A DNA stretch of 63,630 bases, counting the filler, from Folioceros fuciformis (taxonomy: Eukaryota): assembly GCA_049999805.1 (NCBI GenBank). It is 6 parts of 6 records of this genome, joined end to end, with 100 filler letters (N's around TTAATTAATTAA, not from the genome) between each part and the next. Parts side by side here need not be neighbours in the genome. Positions count along the whole stretch, not along the records: positions 12,421 to 21,423 come from JBNGIO010001019.1; 5 more parts are not named here. The stretch is one strand, 5' to 3'. Of this stretch, positions 12,321-21,523 are shown piece by piece. How positions within the stretch are numbered: the first letter of the stretch is position 1; the number at the start of each line of letters is the position of its first letter. Below the pieces are notes generated by a model. It was not told the origin of the DNA and did no database searches. It worked only from the letters and a program-made list of their open reading frames with translations. A program made the position numbers and the translations under genes.

Positions 12321-12420
12321 NNNNNNNNNNNNNNNNNNNNNNNNNNNNNNNNNNNNNNNNNNNNTTAATTAATTAANNNNNNNNNNNNNNNNNNNNNNNN
12401 NNNNNNNNNNNNNNNNNNNN
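12321..12420. other. Artificial contig spacer
   Basis: 44 N + TTAATTAATTAA (stops in all six frames) + 44 N. Confidence 0.99.
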
Positions 12421-14941
12421 GTGCAGCCTATAGCAGCCCAGCTGGGGTTCTAGAAGCAGGGACAGCGAGCGACACGCGTCCACACTGCCCTCCAACCTCT
12501 CTCTCACTCTCCAGTCTCCACCCACATGAGCTGGGTCCGACACATATGTGTACATGGTCCAGTCCCTGGTCTTTAACCACCACCCTCTCCCGGCCCCGCC
12601 GGGAGGCTTCCTGTGCCTCACGCATCAAAGGCTGACGGAACTGGATAAAAAGATTTTAAAAAGGTAAGGACCCCGGCCCCATTCTGCCCGGGCCCAGCTC
12701 ATGACACCTGACTTGAGATAGCAAGTCTTGTCTCATCACTCTCTTCTCAATCCCTCTCAATCTCCATCTCCCTCTCCTCAGCTTCGCCTTTGGAAGCTCA
12801 TGGAAGCAGTGCATGGGCTGGCCCCGTCCCGGTGTACGGACACCCCAACACTCCACAACGACACAGCAACAGCGCAGAGCCAGAGACAGGGAGACAAAAA
12901 GATTAAGAAGGTGATGAGATCGTGTGGGAAACGATTCCGTGTGCCAAGTTAAACTTAACCGCAGTTTAAGTCCGTGTCCGTGTGTGTGTTTCTAGTAGCA
13001 CCTTCTGTGGCCTCGCAAGGCCCATGATCTCATCTCGTGGAACATGGAGGGATGCCATGCCCGGGGCCGTGTCGTGGCGTCAACCGAGAGATCGGCAGTG
13101 ACGGACTGCGCGACTGTTGTCGCCAGTTTCTTGGGCGCTACCGCTACAGCTACAGCTACCCTAACGGTGTGGCCGTTTGGCGGAGTGTGGCGGTGACCAT
13201 CCTTTGACCCGTCCTTGCCCTCCCTCACCTTCACCCTGGCACTGGTCCTTTGCCATCGCCCGGCGTGACAGCCCACCAGCCTTGCAGGCCACCCGCATTT
13301 CCTTCGCCTGCCTTGTATCACCACTGTTGCTGCTGCTTGCCTGTCTGTGGGTCTGGGTCTGGTGGGTCTGGGACCTGGGTCTGGGTAGCAGTCGCAGTCG
13401 CAGTGGTGGTCGCATGGAAGGAAGCAGGAAGCTACCGTCGCGTTGCCGCGCCCTTTCCCCGTCCGCCCACTGGTTTCTCCGCTCCGCACGGCCGCTGCGT
13501 CCACCACTCTGTTGCACGTTTTTAGTGCACACTTCAAATTTCTCTACCACCGCACGCCCACTCCAGTACCGAGGACACACATTCCCAGTCCAGTGCAACT
13601 CCGCATTTTCAACTGCACATTGTCGCAGCCCCGGCCGCGACCCCCGGTCAAGTACGGGACAGAACTGGTCCCTTCGATGCCCGCGCTTCAGGGCGGGGGG
13701 GAGGCGAGCGAGAGCAAGCAGCTCCGAGGCTTCGGATCGGCCTCCTCGGTAACAAGAACTAAGTAACAACTTGTTACGGGAACAAACCAACCTTGAGTGG
13801 AGCAAGGCACGGGCGGCACGGGAATGGGAATCCAATCCGGAAGTGGAACGATTGCAACGTTTACCAAAAGGGAGCTATGCTTAGTGTGTGTGTGGTAGGT
13901 ACTGTGTCAACCCACATGCACATGCACATGTGCTCTCTTCTGTCCAGATGGATTTATATGTGTCGTACGCATCGAGCACGCATCATGCAGCAGCAGCAGC
14001 TGCTGCCGAATCTGCAGCTCGAGGTGCAGAAAATGGCATGTGCAGCCATGGTACTTGTGTGCTCGTACAGATGTATGAATGTCTGAGCCAGCCGCCGGGA
14101 CTCGTCTTTGGTTGTCCTCAAGGGAAGGAGACGAGACGGGGAAAAAATATTCGAAGGGATGACAGGAAGATGAGGCTCCATAAAGCTGCGTGCTTAGAGG
14201 CCACACAGAATCGCTCGAGGTTGCGCACCGCTCACGTCACATGCCACCAGGAAACTGCGACTTGAGAGCCTCACCTCCTTCCTCCAGCCTTGCCCTCCAC
14301 GCAACTCCTGTACGATCCCACCTTCTACAAGCTTCCAATATATTACTGCACTTACGCGCATGGACAGGATCTGGGCCTCACTTCACTCACGGTCCACAGG
14401 CGACAAGCAAAGTGCAAAGTGCCACAGCAACTGCAACTGCAACCGCCTTGCATTGCCTTGCCTTAACGGCCCTGCCCTGCCCTGCCCAGTTCCACCTCAA
14501 ACAGCACGGCGACGCTACCAACAACCGGCGTGACGCCTCGGGTACTGAAGGCCAAGCAGGGAGCACGTCCAGCCTGCCCAACACCCACACCGCACGTTCG
14601 TGCCAACCACACACAAGAAAAACAGCAAGAAGAGCGAGTCTGTTTCAACTCCACCTGGAACGGATTTTTCGTTCCACGGACTTGCTACACACATGCTACG
14701 CAACTCGTACCATAGCTGCCGCTGCTACCACGTTTCCACCCCCTCCCTCTAGGCACCCCATCTGGGTGCGCATCCCGAGAACACTGGAGCAGCAATATTC
14801 CGCCACGCTCAGGCCCCTGCCCCTGCCCCTGCCTTGACCACAAGAAGCCGCCGTGGGTGACGTCCCTGATATGTGAGAGTCAGCACGCCGCTTGTACAAC
14901 TCCAATAGATTTTGCCCTTCATGCAGGTCAGGTACACCTCT

Positions 14942-14994
14942 TCAGTCTCCACCCCGTGGACTGGCCCCATGGTATCTGCGCTCTCGCTCCTGTC

Positions 14995-15038
<44 letters not shown>

Positions 15039-18000
15039 ATAAACTGCTCCGCATCCAAACAACAGACGGCTCAGATGCACTGACCACGGAAAAACAGTGA
15101 CAAGTATGCACCTCCACCAGCCCATTCCGGTCGCTGTCAAACATGCGGAACAACAGATCCAGCTCCTTCTGCGCACCAATACACGTTTAAACCATCACTC
15201 ACAACCGCATCTCCTCACCTATCCCACTGCCCGCACCCGCACCCACACATAACAACATGTCTTACTTTGCGCATGAACCGGGAAGCTGGATGATCACGAA
15301 TTATGCGACGGAACTCCTCCGGGGACACCGGTTTACCAGCAACTGAAGACCACCCAGCCCACCACCCAGATCAAGATACCGAAATACACACATTGCCATA
15401 ATGTATGTATGCCATACGCACCACGCACGACACACACACCTCCACGAGCTATAGATTGGAAGATCTCATCGATGTCGTCCAGGTTCTTGAGCAGGTCACG
15501 CAAAGCTGACAGTTCCTGAACCCGATGCATGCTTCACTGTCAATCCAGATTGTACCCACTACCCCAAAAACTCTGCTCATCACCCTACCTGTTTGCGCTT
15601 CATGTCGGCAAACTTGGGCAAAACACGGTAGACGAAAACCAGGCCCGAGCAAACTGTCAGGGATGCAGTCGCAGCCATTCCCAACACCGCGTAGAAAACA
15701 TCAGGATGTGCTTCCAACCCACTGACCGCAACCACAATATTAGATACCTTCGCGACGCATATCAACACAGGCAAAGGCTGCCACTTTCATACTCGCACAC
15801 ACCATTACCTTATCAGATTCATGCCGAAGAAGTTGGCGGGAACTGTTGCACTGCACACATCACTCCTTCAAATGCCAAATTCCTGAAACAACATGCATGC
15901 ATACCAGTCCAACCAAACTACTGTGCTTCCAACAAACCAGCATGCACAATTGCCAATAAAGGAATCGCCACATACACAGCTAGCGACACAGTTGCAATGC
16001 TGATGAACAAATTCATCCTCATGATGCGGTTGCGGGTTGCATCCAATCCCAGCTCCCAAACCTGCCATCAAACAAGTTATCCACACGCCACAGACGGCCA
16101 TGCCCCTCCACAACCCGTTGTATGCAGTGCTGTTAAAGAGCTGTCACAAAAACTCTTGCGCTACATACCTCTACAGCGGCATCCATATCCTTCTTCAGCT
16201 CTTCCAGAACACCCCCGGCATCATCAATCTGTCGTCAGAACGGACTTCACTAACGCATGGACAAAGCCCGGGAGACTGTTTCCCCCTCCCCCCAATCCTA
16301 CCCATCCAAACACCGTCACTTTGGTTATTTACCTCTCGCAAGTAGGTGATGAACATATCCGCGGCTGCCTGTCGTATCTTTCTCTCGTGGCCCTCGCGCT
16401 GCTCCTCTGAACTCGCCAAGTAGGCCATCTCTGCAACATTTTGCACCCACGTCTTTTTGGTACACGTTTCTCAACACAACTGGCTATGCTTTCACAATCA
16501 CGTTCCTCGTGCACTTCCAGCCATCCAGGATAAGCTGAGTTGAGAATGATACCTGGCGCTGAAACGGAACACAGGGCCTCCAGAATATCATCACTACTTA
16601 GGACCTGGTACAAATGACACCCAGAGTACCGCAGGGTGTCAGGGTGACCAAGATACAAATGTTCAAGCACGAAAACAGCTAACTCTTCTTCATGAACTAG
16701 ATACCACAAGTCTCAACCACTAGGTTGACCTGGTCCATGGCATCGTGGATGTCTCGCACATCATGCTCCACCTCCGTAATTGCACGCTTCAGTGGAAGCA
16801 ACCTCTGCAGCCTGCCAGCAGCTCGGGGAAACCCATCATGGAGTAACAGAAATTCCGGCCTTCACAAAGAATGTTGGTCTACCTTCCTGACTTAAGGGTT
16901 TGCAGGCATGCAGTCCATGGATTTCACATTACCCGCCCATGTTGACATCATTCGTGAGCTCCTCCAGCATTTTCTCCCCGACAACCTTCAGCCTTTCAAC
17001 ATACGAGAAATCAACATAAAAGAAAAAGGACACAGATGAGTGGTGGTGTCACGCAGCCCTCCAGACTTACCTTTCAACCTTTTGGTGGAAGTATTTGCTG
17101 GTCTCTTCCAGTAGGCATTCAATGATCCTGAGGTGGAACGGCATTGGCTCCAAGGGTGCAGGAGGCATAACGTTGGCCTGCTCTGCAATCACTGAAGCAA
17201 AGGCTTGTTTTGCCCTGCATAGATATCCCACCAACTGTATTTACAACAAGAACTGGGCAATTAAATATTCCAGGTCCTTAAAACATTTGATGTCCATGAC
17301 CATCCACCACCTCAAGCAGTTGATCGCACCTTTCCAGTGTTTCAGGATTGCGTAGCTGTGTCTCGAGGTCTGCACCGTCCGACAAAATGGGATTCAATCC
17401 TCGAAACTTTGAGGTACTGCTAGCACGAACATTTTGGGTCACCTTTTCCACTAAAATCCCCTCAAGACTTGCAATCTATGGTACTGTCTAGCCTCGAGAT
17501 CACAGTTGATGCCACCACATGAGTTGCTCAGTATCTAAAGAAGATGACATCCAAAGGAAGAGAGAAATACACAACCCTGCAACAAGCTACCAACCACACC
17601 GAATTTATGTCAAGAAGTACCGGGGTCGAGATGCATCGAACAACAAGGCATGGTCCCGACTGACTAGAGCCCTGACGTTCTCCAGCCTCATAATCACCTG
17701 GGTTTCACCGCACAACCATCAGTGCAGGAGCGGTAACATCACAAACAACAAACCTCTGCAGCAGACCATCAAACAGGTCACCTTGAAGTTCTGCACAGCA
17801 ATGGTAGCACGCTTTGGGATGAACGAACTGCTGACCAGCAAATCCAAGTCTCGGGGATGAATGCCCTGCATAAGGCGTGGGTCAGCTATGCGGAAAGATA
17901 AGGAAAAAACAAAAGCAGCCCTCTATCATCGTATGCTATCGACTACCAGATCTACAGAGCTGACAAGGCGTGGATTGCAACTGCCGTTGCTGTCGATGTC

Positions 18001-18471
18001 TATCACAGAATATTGGGTGCCCACGTCCAAAACAGTGTGCTCGAAGTCGTTGAGCTTTTTCTTGCGTTCCCCGTCTTGTTCGGCATCCTTTTCCCCACCT
18101 GACCTATCGCTGCTCATCCAGCATCTTGGGATGGACACAGGCGTTTGTCCATGCGCCCTCTCCGCAAATCGCAAGACATAGTGCTCTGTTCCGAAAACGT
18201 GTCGTTCAGCTCGTGGGAAAGCTGGAGCTGCATTCTTCAGTGGAGTGTAATCATCTGAGACACAACTCGAAGTCTGACTAGGCCATGACGACGCCCTGTC
18301 GTGCACCCAGCGATCCTGAGTGAAACATGTAAGCCATCGCAACGATGAGCCAGGTTGGCGTCTTCTACCAACGGAGAAGACTTCCTCGGGCACGAGATTG
18401 CACCATGACAGGAGCTTCAAAGCATGCAAACTTCTGCCACAACGAGCTTTCTCACGCAACACCGATCTCAT
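14942..18471 (-). CDS. MRS2: MRS2/CorA-family Mg2+ channel with N-terminal organellar presequence and C-terminal EF-hand pair, 15 exons
   Basis: Phase-consistent GT-AG exons give GIHPRDLDLL, VIMRLENVRALV, MPFHLRIIECLLEE, LQRLLPLKRAI, LDATRNRIMRMNL, TM1, ANFFGMNL (GMN signature, ~15816-15824), TM2 (VFYAVLGMAATASLTVCSGLVFVY), then IFQSIARGVAGKPVSPEEF and LFRMFDSDRNGLVE|RQE. Confidence 0.92.
14998..15036 (-). repeat. Poly(T) tract at the 3' splice site of the last MRS2 intron
   Basis: A run of ~39 A on the plus strand sits directly next to the minus-strand acceptor AG. Confidence 0.85.
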
Positions 18472-18699
18472 CGTCGAGGAAAGTGTCTGCCGGAAACTCG
18501 TGCCTCATGACAAGATTGCCCCCAGGAGCAACACATCCGAGAACATGCGGATTTCGCACGCCGGCCCGAAACGAACTCCAACTGCCTGGAGCATCCCGTC
18601 GAAGCGATACGACCTGGACGGAAGATCCACCCGTCCCGGCGAACTCTTCTCCAAAGGTCTTGCTAATTGAGGACGGACTGGCGGACCAATGGATGGTTG

Positions 18700-21286
18700 C
18701 TACCTGCTGGTCCGTGCGTAATCCCAGGGAGCCAGCTAATGGATGATGGAACGGCCGGCAGACACTGAACTCCCGCGGGCTCGCGCAGTTGGGTGGTGGG
18801 CAAGACAAGGCATCATGGAGGACTGGAAAGTGGACGAAGACGACCAAACGGACACAGTCGTACCACAGGAATCGCTGCACCCCGCTTTCATGAGCCCACT
18901 GAAAGGGCCTGAACAGGAACATGTAAAAGGTGGCAACATTTAGCACCATGAAAGCTGCTCCCATGAGGAAGTACGCCAAGCCTCCCCACCTCTTCCCTGC
19001 ATGGGTGTGCAGGAAAGCTATGTAGAACGGGACAGTAAAGTATCTGAATTCTACCAGAGGGGCAGGAATCAGGGCCGCTGCCACTCCTACAACGAAGACC
19101 AGAACCCACAGTCTGCTCTTCGTCTTGCCTGCAGCACAAGAGAAAACTTGAGGAACAGCACCGCAGGAAAAGCTCGTTTCAACTGATTCGATTTGCGCCT
19201 GCTTACCAAGGTGATAGATGATGGCGCTCCACGACAACACGTAGGCGGGAATCAGCAGATACTTGACACTCCAGTGTGCGCCAAACAATTTCTTCCATAT
19301 GTAAAAGGTGTAGTGACGATTGTCAGCCAACAGATATGGATGCGCATGGCTGCAGACAAAAAGTGACGCCCAATATTATTAACTAGAGTAACTGAGCCCT
19401 ACCTATCTGCCTGCCCCAATCGCAAAGAAGTGATGCAGGAGGATGATCAATGGTTACGTAAAGAAGTGCACCCAACACAAGGCTGCAACACATGCCGAAG
19501 TACAACAAAAAAAGGACTTGCTGCTCCACTTATGTTTCAGTCCTCCCGGAGAGAGAATGTACACAGGAGCAAGAACCATTGCAGTCATCAAGCCAAAATA
19601 CAGGAGCTGTGGGAAGTGCGGTGATACTTTGTGAGCTTCTTTTGCACCTGCAAAATGACATAAAGATAGATTACTTTGTCGCAAGCGTAAAGCAAGACCC
19701 CGTAGGTGTCTCAGGTGCCAATAGTACAGACAGCCCCCGCCAGGATACTTACCAACAACAATGCCCCCATTGTAGAAGACATATATAACGAAGAATGCTA
19801 CCACGGTCACCAGTGGAAAAAAGTTCAGAAAGACTTCGTTCCTCTTCAGCCATGCCAGCCGTGCCATGGACCATGCCTCCAAAACTAACTCTGCAAGAAA
19901 ATGAGCGTTACAATGGACCTGCAAAGATCCGGTTTCTGAGTTGCCCAATACGAGTCCTACACACCTTCAACGTCTTTGGCCAAACTCTTTTCAGAAATTG
20001 CGTGCCCTGCAAACTGGCCTTGTGAGAGCACTGAATCTTTTGACTCAAGTCCTCCTCCGCTTCTTCTTCTCGATCTGGCAGAGGCTACGGGGACATTCAA
20101 CACGCCAGGCAAGGGGTCGATTCCTGGAACCACCTTGCCTTCTTCCTTTGCATTTGGTGCGATATGAAGCATGTCTAGCAACCCCGAGCAAGTTGCAAAT
20201 ACTACCCAGACTACATTTGTTTGTCTAAATAGGATGGCGATGGCTCCAAACTGCACAAGCCACTGGACTCGTTAGTCACTGCAAAGCATAGGAGACATCG
20301 CACCGCAGCATTGCATCTGCACAAGTCATGCCACTATTCTCTACTCTAGCACAGAACTAACCTCCACGGAAAGCATGGTGCAGGGAATGACAGCTCCAGA
20401 CCACCCACCAGCGCGCTGACCCAAAACGATCTTCGAAGAGAAGCCAAGTACATGGCCATAACAGCGGTAGTCGAGCCAACATCAGTGTAGTACAGGAACA
20501 TGAAGAACCAATGGAGAGGATATAACGCCATCACCGCCGCCTTTGCAGACGCTTTCCAGCTACTTATTCCAGGTTCGATCTGCTTAGCAATCTTCTGGAA
20601 GAGAATACAACAAACCAAACCTAGAAATACATTCACTGAGCGAAGCATAACTGAAGAACACAGTGCCGGCAAATTGACAGCCATATCAGTCCACCAAGCC
20701 AGAGGCCGAGCAGTTGCTGCCAATCCCAAAGAGAAAATGTACCTAACACAAGGCACTCCCATCAACAAGCAATCCTGGAGACTGCGAGCAGCAGAATTAC
20801 AAAAAATAATCAGATAACTTCACGAGTGGTAGAAGGGAATACAAGCCAGGGAAGGTGGTGATCATCGGATCCCAGCTCCAGATTTCCCCCCTGCAATATT
20901 GCTGAGCCTGCGGGATATGAAAAATTTCGTCCTGTGAACAACCAACCATGTGTCAGAGTGCTGATCCTTAAACCACCGACTATTTGTCTGTCCGAGTTCA
21001 GATCCCTGTACCACCAACCAAGTGTAAGAGAACTGATCCTAAAACCACTACGAAAGCTCCCCCAAGCTGCAAAGCTCACATATCTAACGGCTTACAAGCA
21101 AAATTCAAAGACGGCATCGAAATCGTTCCTCAAGCCTGTGTCACGAACCATGTAGGGGTCTGGAACGACAAGGTTGACAAGAACGGCGGGTACCAAACAA
21201 AGAACGACGATAGACCCGAGGATTAACGAGAAAGCTGCAATCCATGACGGACACCGTTCACCAATCCTCCACGCATCCCTGATCAT
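18700..21286 (-). CDS. ALG10: Dol-P-Glc alpha-1,2-glucosyltransferase (DIE2/ALG10)
   Basis: Exons encode [20 protein letters not shown]...[68 protein letters not shown] and QRFLW. The final Trp codon is split by an intron (TG|G TAG at 18703-18700). The start codon is uncertain (alternative ATG at 21343). Confidence 0.93.
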
Positions 21287-21423
21287 TTTCACCGGATCGG
21301 AAGCTGGTGCTCGCTCCTGCACAGTCTGGTTCTCGCGCTGCATTTCACATTGCGGCTGGACCCACTCCAAAGATCCCTCGAGCGAGCAGGGGATGCTAAC
21401 GGCAGAACTACACAGAACACAGC

Positions 21424-21523
21424 NNNNNNNNNNNNNNNNNNNNNNNNNNNNNNNNNNNNNNNNNNNNTTAATTAATTAANNNNNNNNNNNNNNNNNNNNN
21501 NNNNNNNNNNNNNNNNNNNNNNN
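21424..21523. other. Artificial contig spacer
   Basis: 44 N + TTAATTAATTAA + 44 N. Confidence 0.99.

Follow-up and report, generated by a model that had tools for sequence, protein, structure and literature searches.

The solved Mrs2 channels, from human (8ip3, 8tul, 8ts1), Chaetomium thermophilum (8q8p, 8q8q; CtMrs2) and, as an N-terminal domain, yeast (3rkg), share an N-terminal alpha/beta domain, a long stalk helix, a first transmembrane helix (TM1), the GMN motif and a second transmembrane helix (TM2). The Arabidopsis proteins MGT1-10 are likewise two-helix GMN proteins of Mg2+ transport, from the green lineage. Thermotoga maritima CorA, a pentameric GMN channel with both termini on the ion-destination side, is gated by Mg2+ on its N-terminal domain. 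Here, we analyzed a window of 63,630 nucleotides (nt) from Folioceros fuciformis (GenBank assembly GCA_049999805.1), made of six parts joined end to end with filler between them; positions below count along this whole window. On its minus strand, within the part taken from JBNGIO010001019.1 (12,421 to 21,423), lies a spliced gene for an MRS2-type channel followed by a C-terminal EF-hand pair, unlike human, C. thermophilum and yeast Mrs2, which have no EF-hand behind TM2. Judged from sequence, the locus is a member of an old and widespread eukaryotic branch of MRS2-type (CorA superfamily) GMN channels that carry an EF-hand tail.

Transporters with a fused EF-hand module serving as a built-in Ca2+ input are also found among the aspartate/glutamate carriers (citrin, 4p5w), the ATP-Mg/Pi carriers and LETM1. 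These mitochondrial transporters have transport domains unrelated to MRS2, and the EF-hands of the carriers are N-terminal and face the intermembrane space, whereas the tailed MRS2 proteins have a single canonical loop that is C-terminal and predicted to lie on the matrix side. S100 proteins likewise pair a first hand that departs from the canonical form with a second that follows it. The latter, however, are small soluble dimers whose first loop binds Ca2+ through the backbone, while the first loop of the tailed MRS2 proteins is shorter than 12 residues.

The evidence that channel and tail form one gene came from the spliced contigs of one public run, X1, which we took to be RNA by guess and whose contigs we treated as spliced because they skip GT..AG introns. 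X1 contains about half of the locus words sampled, and nine of its 11 contigs match the window at 99% identity or more. Among the 15 of 22 contig joints listed, eight coincide exactly with introns of the model, which has 16, and each skipped stretch is bounded by CT..AC when read on the plus strand. Three of the joints (15514>15588, 15342>15440 and 15168>15266) lie in a single 1076-nt contig, record 1, which is unbroken to 14323. One spliced molecule therefore carries the TM2 exon together with the tail exons, the stop and about 620 nt of 3' untranslated region (UTR). An earlier note, made from this DNA alone, had claimed that the EF-hand pair is fused to the MRS2 channel and had named, as what would speak against it, transcripts that stop after TM2 or tail exons that belong to another gene. 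We found instead that, in one contig, the TM2 exon is spliced to the three tail exons that follow it, and that this contig extends past the stop into the 3' UTR; together with the gene model and the homology of the tail, it bears the claim out.

The gene model is a split open reading frame (ORF) from an ATG at 18471 to a TGA at 14944-14942, assembled from GT-AG sites, frame and contig joints. It comprises 17 exons, or 16 if a 40-nt exon is left out, rather than the 15 phase-consistent exons counted before. GT donors and AG acceptors are present throughout, and the frame is open for 596-598 amino acids. As claimed in the earlier note, the frame runs past GMN and TM2 through four more exons. For exons 6 to 13, the junctions were placed by GT-AG sites, reading frame and homology. 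Two Kyte-Doolittle peaks flank the GMN motif, no other stretch exceeding 1.5, and none of the three GMN residues varies in alignment A2. A 29-residue piece of exon 11 had only three matches in the PDB, all of them to human MRS2 residues 326-350 at E 2.1.

The same model yields the two EF-hands that had been proposed, a degenerate first one and a canonical second loop whose position-12 Glu appears only after splicing: exon 16 supplies D1, D3, N5, G6, V8 and E9, and exon 17 supplies E12. The loop is canonical at positions 1, 3, 5, 6, 8, 9 and 12 and passes the 12-residue part of the PROSITE pattern PS00018. A 39-nt homopolymer (14998-15036; poly-T on the coding strand) lies in the last intron directly before the acceptor, and because of it the joint of this intron was dropped: the repeat 14987-15046 was masked in contig mapping, so the joint is absent from those recorded. 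A 58-letter contig block beside 15168 points to a next exon that starts with G. An acceptor between 14990 and 14989 (loop end E-R-E) probably fits better than one between 14996 and 14995 (R-Q-E), and position 12 is Glu with either. Of the loop as first read, D-S-D-R-N-G-L-V-E-R-Q-E, the first nine residues and the Glu supplied by the last exon thus stand, but positions 10-11 are probably E-R, not R-Q.

Apart from the exon 11 matches, searches with single exons returned no MRS2 or CorA match: Pfam, run on eight exon ORF pieces, gave chance-level hits and a weak EF-hand_8 hit only. Exon 5 matched designed ankyrin repeats in the PDB, which we read as chance, and the TM2 exon matched only unnamed clusters in the ESM Atlas. 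A scan of metagenomic DNA for the pattern F-G-M-N, then an EF-hand loop 103-113 codons on, gave 17 loci, one of which (L001) was a true homologue; another, L011, combined a CorA C-terminus with a dockerin, and the remainder were due to chance or out of frame. Word-index homologue searches with exon 1, the TM2 exon and a piece of L001 gave no match. L001 is intronless and carries TM1, GMN, TM2 and the tail in a single ORF of 162 codons. The stretch ahead of this ORF matches Pfam MRS2-like (E 3e-17), and its tail scores above the cut-offs of EF-hand_5, EF-hand_6 and EF-hand_1.

Searching the L001 ORF against 1.84 billion cluster representatives retrieved 377 proteins at E<=0.001, and our family counts cover the best 150 of these. 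Overall, 61 of the 150 align to TM1-GMN-TM2 and the tail, 77 to the transmembrane part only, seven to the tail only, and five partially. Sixty-eight of the 139 GMN-bearing representatives have a tail-profile match after GMN, a count that is partly circular because the profile was made from 59 of the same tails. Another 51 of the 139 stop no more than 75 residues after GMN and lack a match to the tail profile, in agreement with the earlier statement that typical MRS2 proteins end soon after TM2. Among the 38 tailed proteins of at least 280 residues, Pfam (E<=0.001) finds MRS2-like in all 38, CorA in 27, EF-hand_7 in 25 and EF-hand_8 in 20.

To name the sources, we looked up 30 representatives by exact sequence, most of which come from unnamed assemblies. 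The named tailed sources are the streptophyte alga Spirogloea muscicola (P0106), the malawimonad Gefionella okellyi, Plasmodiophora brassicae, Chromosphaera perkinsii, a pelagophyte and an MMETSP transcript. The P. brassicae protein appears in UniProt as a plain "Magnesium transporter", and one JGI record carries the automatic name "EF-hand domain pair". One tailed MRS2 (P0163, in cluster P0018) is assigned to a copepod, Oithona nana. It could be a genuine animal member or stem from protist sequence contaminating that assembly; a 2025 phylogenetic review describes MRS2 as absent from most non-vertebrate animals (PMC13022745).

The window protein sits within this set. In local searches against the 150 retrieved proteins, the spliced model matched P0074 (565 residues) over residues 144-584 with 481 bits (E 5e-146), the Spirogloea protein P0106 with 329 bits and P0116 with 183 bits. 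Identity is 50% to P0074 (234 of 464 columns) and 37% to P0106 (512 columns); in the tail alone, it is 36 of 73 and 31 of 75 columns, respectively. A tail profile built from 59 tails, with the window protein excluded, matches model residues 513-585 (47.2 bits, E 3.3e-15 among 152 sequences). The roughly 85-residue stretch behind TM2 is thereby shown, at the sequence level, to be homologous to the tails of dozens of relatives.

The channel part of these relatives is clearly of the MRS2 type. P0074 scores 84.5 bits against Pfam MRS2-like (PF22099; cut-off 27) and 25.1 bits against Pfam CorA, below the cut-off of 27, and it matches human MRS2 by sequence with 65.5 bits (E 3e-17). With its structure model, Foldseek recovered human MRS2 (E 1.9e-14; template modelling score 0.69 on the target), CtMrs2 (2.2e-13) and the yeast domain 3rkg (2.7e-10). 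In VIA-align, the transmembrane hairpin of the P0048 model superposed on CtMrs2 with Z 8.9 and a root-mean-square deviation (rmsd) of 2.1 Å over 74 residues, and on human MRS2 with Z 7.3 and 1.7 Å over 83 residues. The models of P0074 and P0048 also resemble structures of T. maritima CorA (E 4.7e-5 and Z 7.7, respectively), but this prokaryotic protein has a short basic C-terminus, no EF-hand and far lower sequence similarity. The tail-less representatives P0047 (131 bits) and P0086 (153.5 bits) are closer to CtMrs2 than is the tailed P0074 (54 bits).

The tails are also predicted to fold as EF-hand pairs. AlphaFold2 models of P0048 (190 residues, 62-row alignment) and P0074 (565 residues, 38 rows) reached mean predicted local distance difference test (pLDDT) scores of 84.9 and 74.1, with residues 120-555 of the latter mostly above 80. 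In both, TM2 extends as one helix of nearly 50 residues, followed twice by a helix, a short strand and a helix: helices 105-118, 126-135, 144-154 and 164-167 with strands 123-125 and 161-163 in P0048, and helices 484-495, 505-514, 523-533 and 543-554 with strands 502-504 and 540-542 in P0074. With the P0048 model, Foldseek gave no match at E<=0.001. Each of the 41 matches listed to rank 49 was either an EF-hand protein (calmodulin, S100, centrin, NCS-1, recoverin) or a complex containing calmodulin or S100, at probabilities of 0.66-0.99 and E>0.001; S100A4, S100A9 and others were among the top ones (probability 0.91-0.97, E 0.08-0.18). VIA-align placed residues 88-171 of the same model on an EF1-EF2 domain (Z 6.6) and on the EF-hand domain of citrin (Z 6.3; rmsd 3.1 Å over 79 residues for model residues 88-169), Z values that are middling for helical models. 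For the Pfam EF-hand clan (PF13499, PF13833, PF00036, PF13405, PF13202), curated cut-offs are passed by P0106 (EF-hand_7, 36.7 bits versus 30) and P0048 (EF-hand_6, 25.2 versus 25).

Across 60 tails, the second loop, canonical in most of them, is under clear constraint. Asp stands at position 1 in 57 tails; D, N or S at position 3 in 58 and at position 5 also in 58; Gly at position 6 in 47; I, L or V at position 8 in all 60; and E or D at position 12 in 46. Only six columns of the 38-row alignment do not vary, among them this first Asp and the G and N of the GMN motif. None of the 60 tails has a canonical first hand, and no tail combines two canonical loops.

The earlier note had proposed a search for the CorA/MRS2 plus EF-hand architecture with a phylogeny. 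We inferred an unrooted tree from the MRS2 part alone, with tails removed (63 rows, 346 columns, IQ-TREE in its careful setting). The window protein grouped with the tailed proteins, joining P0074 (support 100/95), then P0106 (99/94) and then P0116 (100/99). One branch separated 23 tail-less rows from the 40 others with support of 85/94.3, a split that is suggestive, not firm. The tail label changes five times on the tree after six rows that do have tails are relabelled. It changes once without P0039, P0104, P0131 and P0137, which end within 45 residues of the end of the TM2-part alignment and are possibly truncated models. A single origin or a single loss of the tail would each fit this tree, which is unrooted and drawn from a sample biased toward the query. 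Since the architecture is that of a large, old eukaryotic subfamily in public sequences, the streptophyte alga included, the window gene is a member rather than a unique fusion.

The earlier note could not tell whether algal or bryophyte examples had been described. The architecture is indeed present in public sequences, including those of a streptophyte alga, but we found no paper that characterizes it. A full-text literature search, with subscription journals and InterPro-type pages outside its reach and prior notice therefore possible, returned no paper on MRS2 or CorA with an EF-hand. The term EF-hand is absent from the 2025 phylogenetic review, which describes plant MRS2/MGT proteins as ending soon after TM2 (PMC13022745). 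What is already known is thus the member sequences, which are public and in some cases bear automatic EF-hand labels; what is new is the subfamily as such, apparently unstudied.

In CorA/MRS2 proteins, both termini lie on the side to which the ion flows, where the N-terminal domain binds regulatory Mg2+ (PMC13022745), and the tail would therefore lie beside the N-terminal domain. Basic, acid-poor N-termini were present in 18 of 29 relatives with a full start (a crude count), and the subfamily also occurs in non-photosynthetic lineages. For these two reasons, we favor the mitochondrial inner membrane and a matrix-facing tail over the stroma, and the second makes a stromal location unlikely as the ancestral state.

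We propose that the protein would assemble into pentamers, as MRS2/CorA channels do elsewhere, and that it most likely resides in the inner membrane of mitochondria, with its tail on the matrix side adjoining the N-terminal regulatory domain. A divalent cation (Ca2+, competing with Mg2+) at the second EF-hand would alter the packing of the pair on the stalk or on the neighbouring N-terminal domain. The pair would be repositioned on the long TM2 extension, shifting the balance between open and closed states, and the outcome would be a built-in Ca2+ input on Mg2+ entry. Taken as a whole, the reading of an EF-tailed MRS2 channel whose second EF-hand biases gating by binding a cation is one that we hold with moderate confidence, gating control being the step that we infer.

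Several observations weigh against this reading. Position 13 of the second loop, which is L, F, I, Y, M or V in 44 of 60 tails, is Arg in the window protein; only 12 residues follow, charged or Gly/Pro-rich (the median of the others is 18), and no alternative last exon with a normal exit helix was found in three frames below 15112. The exon-16 ORF piece, searched without the other exons, scored 13.2 bits against EF-hand_8 (E 0.076; cut-off 28), and P0074, the nearest relative, also falls below the EF-hand threshold at 13.9 bits. The 12-residue part of the PROSITE EF-hand pattern is failed by 25 of the 60 tails. Moreover, the structure models are those of the relatives P0048 and P0074 rather than of the window protein, the location has a crude N-terminal count as its basis, and few EF-hand proteins are known to face the mitochondrial matrix. 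The short, charged exit helix lowers the odds of strong Ca2+ binding by the window protein. Its second EF-hand appears somewhat eroded, and its sensor may be weaker than that of most relatives.

Much of this would also be explained if the tail were a structural or docking module, in which the EF fold is kept for stalk packing, pentamer assembly or partner binding and no ion is sensed in this lineage. The sub-threshold Pfam matches of the window piece and P0074, the truncated, charged exit helix with its Arg, the tails that fail the pattern and the uniformly non-canonical first hand all point this way, as does loop position 6, which is Arg or Asp instead of Gly in P0074 and P0048. Nevertheless, the side-chain ligand positions 1, 3, 5, 9 and 12 of the window protein are all canonical, the position-1 Asp does not vary among the 38 long relatives, and both P0074 and P0048 pass the full EF-hand pattern when the alignment is read by eye. 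We consider such a purely structural role unlikely.

A second alternative keeps the sensor but changes its ion: the EF-hand would mainly report free Mg2+ on the matrix side, adding to or replacing the N-terminal-domain Mg2+ sites that close CorA/MRS2. EF-hands can take Mg2+ at millimolar levels, and an Asp at loop position 12, found in eight of the 60 tails, favors smaller ions. The gating of CorA/MRS2 by Mg2+ on the N-terminal side, as reported in two papers (PMC9909464, PMC13022745), is in line with this possibility. Position 12 is, however, Glu in 38 of the 60 tails, the window protein included, which is the bidentate ligand of the Ca2+ type. A Mg2+ feedback sensor strikes us as rather improbable.

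It is also conceivable that this copy is mostly unproductive, its main transcript carrying a premature stop after exon 3 and the full-length protein being rare or not made. The sole exon 3/4 joint among the 15 of 22 listed, 17369>17621, shifts the frame and leads to a stop at codon 238, a further point against the favored reading, and contigs that retain introns were found at two places (below). Conversely, all other exons are open and conserved to the stop, the joints listed are those 15 of 22 only, and contigs drop minor variants. Use of an acceptor at 17416 or 17419, which lie 47 and 50 nt further upstream, restores the frame, as does leaving exon 4 out. With the long form of exon 4, the model scored 484.0 or 482.7 bits against P0074 (474.2 with exon 4 skipped), 324.6 against P0106 (319.0) and 186.1 against P0116 (183.7), whereas the distant P0119 preferred the skipped form (134 versus 123 bits). 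Since the long form scores above the skipped one for the three nearest relatives, we took it as the candidate productive form, and we regard an unproductive copy as very improbable.

The last alternative, in which the tail exons are part of a different gene or faulty assembly or annotation created the fusion, could draw on the general risk of short exons and on a contig bridging exon 1 and the gene upstream, which shows that contigs can span two genes, but it is close to refuted by the contig that joins TM2 to the tail exons in frame, by transcript-derived proteins with the same contiguous layout (P0116 and P0119, both from Trinity; P0100, from MMETSP) and by the single ORF of the intronless L001.

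The regulation of mitochondrial Mg2+ entry and its crosstalk with Ca2+ signalling are under active debate, and Mg2+ reportedly tunes the Ca2+ uniporter (PMC10371168). An MRS2 branch with a conserved, built-in EF-hand would offer a natural experiment on the Mg2+/Ca2+ link, as its sensor lends itself to deletion, to transplantation and to mutation of two specific residues in the loop. Members occur in tractable or sequenced organisms, which makes the idea directly testable. The subfamily also indicates that the eukaryotic MRS2 family is wider than the animal, fungal and land-plant forms underlying reviews. For this genome, the significance is more modest: one member of the subfamily, with a second EF-hand that seems partly worn down.

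We tentatively raise the further possibility, which we think less probable than not, that the EF-hand tail is ancestral in eukaryotic MRS2, such that an early paralogue or the original form coupled matrix Ca2+ to Mg2+ entry and the tail was lost toward the studied animal and fungal channels. Human MRS2 is reported to be Ca2+-regulated (PMC10462007). If the tail is ancestral, this regulation would be a remnant of, or a replacement for, an earlier Ca2+ switch wired into the channel itself, one that algae and many protists still have.

The N-terminal end of the model is also uncertain. About 143 residues encoded by exon 1 are lineage-specific and could hold a presequence and an extension, and its last ~30 residues start the conserved MRS2 N-terminal domain. 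No homologue of the N-terminal 143 residues was found in the word-index search with exon 1, and the local search starts matching P0074 only at model residue 144. Upstream, at 18455-21300 on the minus strand, lies a gene that we take, from sequence motifs, to be ALG10/DIE2-like. One spliced contig connects the exons of this gene, without a gap across 19127-17946, to exon 1 of the MRS2 gene. Within it, the upstream ORF terminates at 18455 and so overlaps the MRS2 ORF by 17 nt, which could reflect read-through, overlapping UTRs or an assembly merge. Because the first ~143 residues have no homologue and a contig bridges the upstream gene and exon 1, the start codon and any presequence are provisional. 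The coordinates of all exons are given in Table 1.

Table 1. Features of the EF-tailed MRS2 gene model, in window positions (GT-AG, splice-site dinucleotides; a>b, contig joint)
Feature	Positions	Strand	Basis and remarks
Exon 1	17947..18471	-	ATG 18471; in-frame stop 18507-18505; joint 17864>17946
Exon 2, N-terminal domain	17782..17865	-	Joints 17864>17946, 17693>17778; GT-AG, frame; alignment with relatives
Exon 3, N-terminal domain	17621..17697	-	Joints 17693>17778, 17369>17621; GT-AG, frame
Exon 4	17330..17419	-	Joints 17369>17621, 17213>17329; contig form 17369-17330 (40 nt); in-frame start 17419 or 17416
Exon 5, N-terminal domain helix	17071..17214	-	Joints 17213>17329, 16991>17070; GT-AG, frame; alignment
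Exon 6	16933..16992	-	Joint 16991>17070; donor from GT-AG and frame only; intron-retaining contig over 16783-16961
Exon 7	16730..16811	-	GT-AG, frame, alignment with relatives; no joint among the 15 of 22 listed
Exon 8	16553..16604	-	GT-AG, frame, alignment
Exon 9	16333..16430	-	GT-AG, frame, alignment
Exon 10, stalk helix	16169..16228	-	GT-AG, frame, alignment
Exon 11, end of stalk helix and TM1	15976..16061	-	PDB matches to human MRS2; hydropathy peak at residues 442-460
Exon 12, end of TM1 and GMN	15809..15850	-	Sequence; GMN at model residue 462
Exon 13, TM2 and basic stretch behind it	15589..15721	-	Hydropathy peak at residues 479-497; joint 15514>15588 to tail
Exon 14, TM2 helix continuation and entering helix of non-canonical EF-hand 1	15440..15515	-	Joints 15514>15588, 15342>15440 (one contig); tail alignment
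Exon 15, short EF-hand 1 loop, exit helix and linker	15266..15342	-	Joints 15342>15440, 15168>15266; tail alignment
Exon 16, EF-hand 2 entering helix and loop positions 1-9	15112..15168	-	Joint 15168>15266; weak EF-hand_8 match
Exon 17, loop positions 10-12, short charged exit helix and TGA	14942..14989 (start possibly 14995)	-	Contig record 1 covers 14323-14986
3' UTR	14323..14941	-	Contig record 1 unbroken to 14323; no conserved ORF below 14942

Examining the X1 contigs also revealed two that retain introns, at 15821-16005 (depth 29.6) and 16783-16961 (depth 13.2), compared with depths of 37-48 for the spliced contigs. These unbroken contigs suggest retained introns, pre-mRNA or some DNA in X1.

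Two of the metagenomic loci deserve a separate description. L001 has an in-frame TAG at 423-425, in a conserved stretch just before TM1 and between its ORFs 3-422 and 426-911, and its ORF ends in a TAG with a TAA one codon later; a genetic code in which TAG is sense, a pseudogene or a sequencing error are possible explanations. In L011, positions 1839-2282 on the minus strand encode the C-terminal ~45 residues of a protein of the CorA type (PF01544, E 7e-5) followed by a type I dockerin (24.5 bits versus a cut-off of 22.9), which is a second, unrelated way to place a Ca2+-binding repeat behind the TM2 of CorA. Finally, the window itself contains five pairs of 44-N blocks, the two blocks of a pair lying 12 bases apart (12321-12420, 21424-21523 and three more pairs), which look like masked or withheld sequence rather than assembly gaps.

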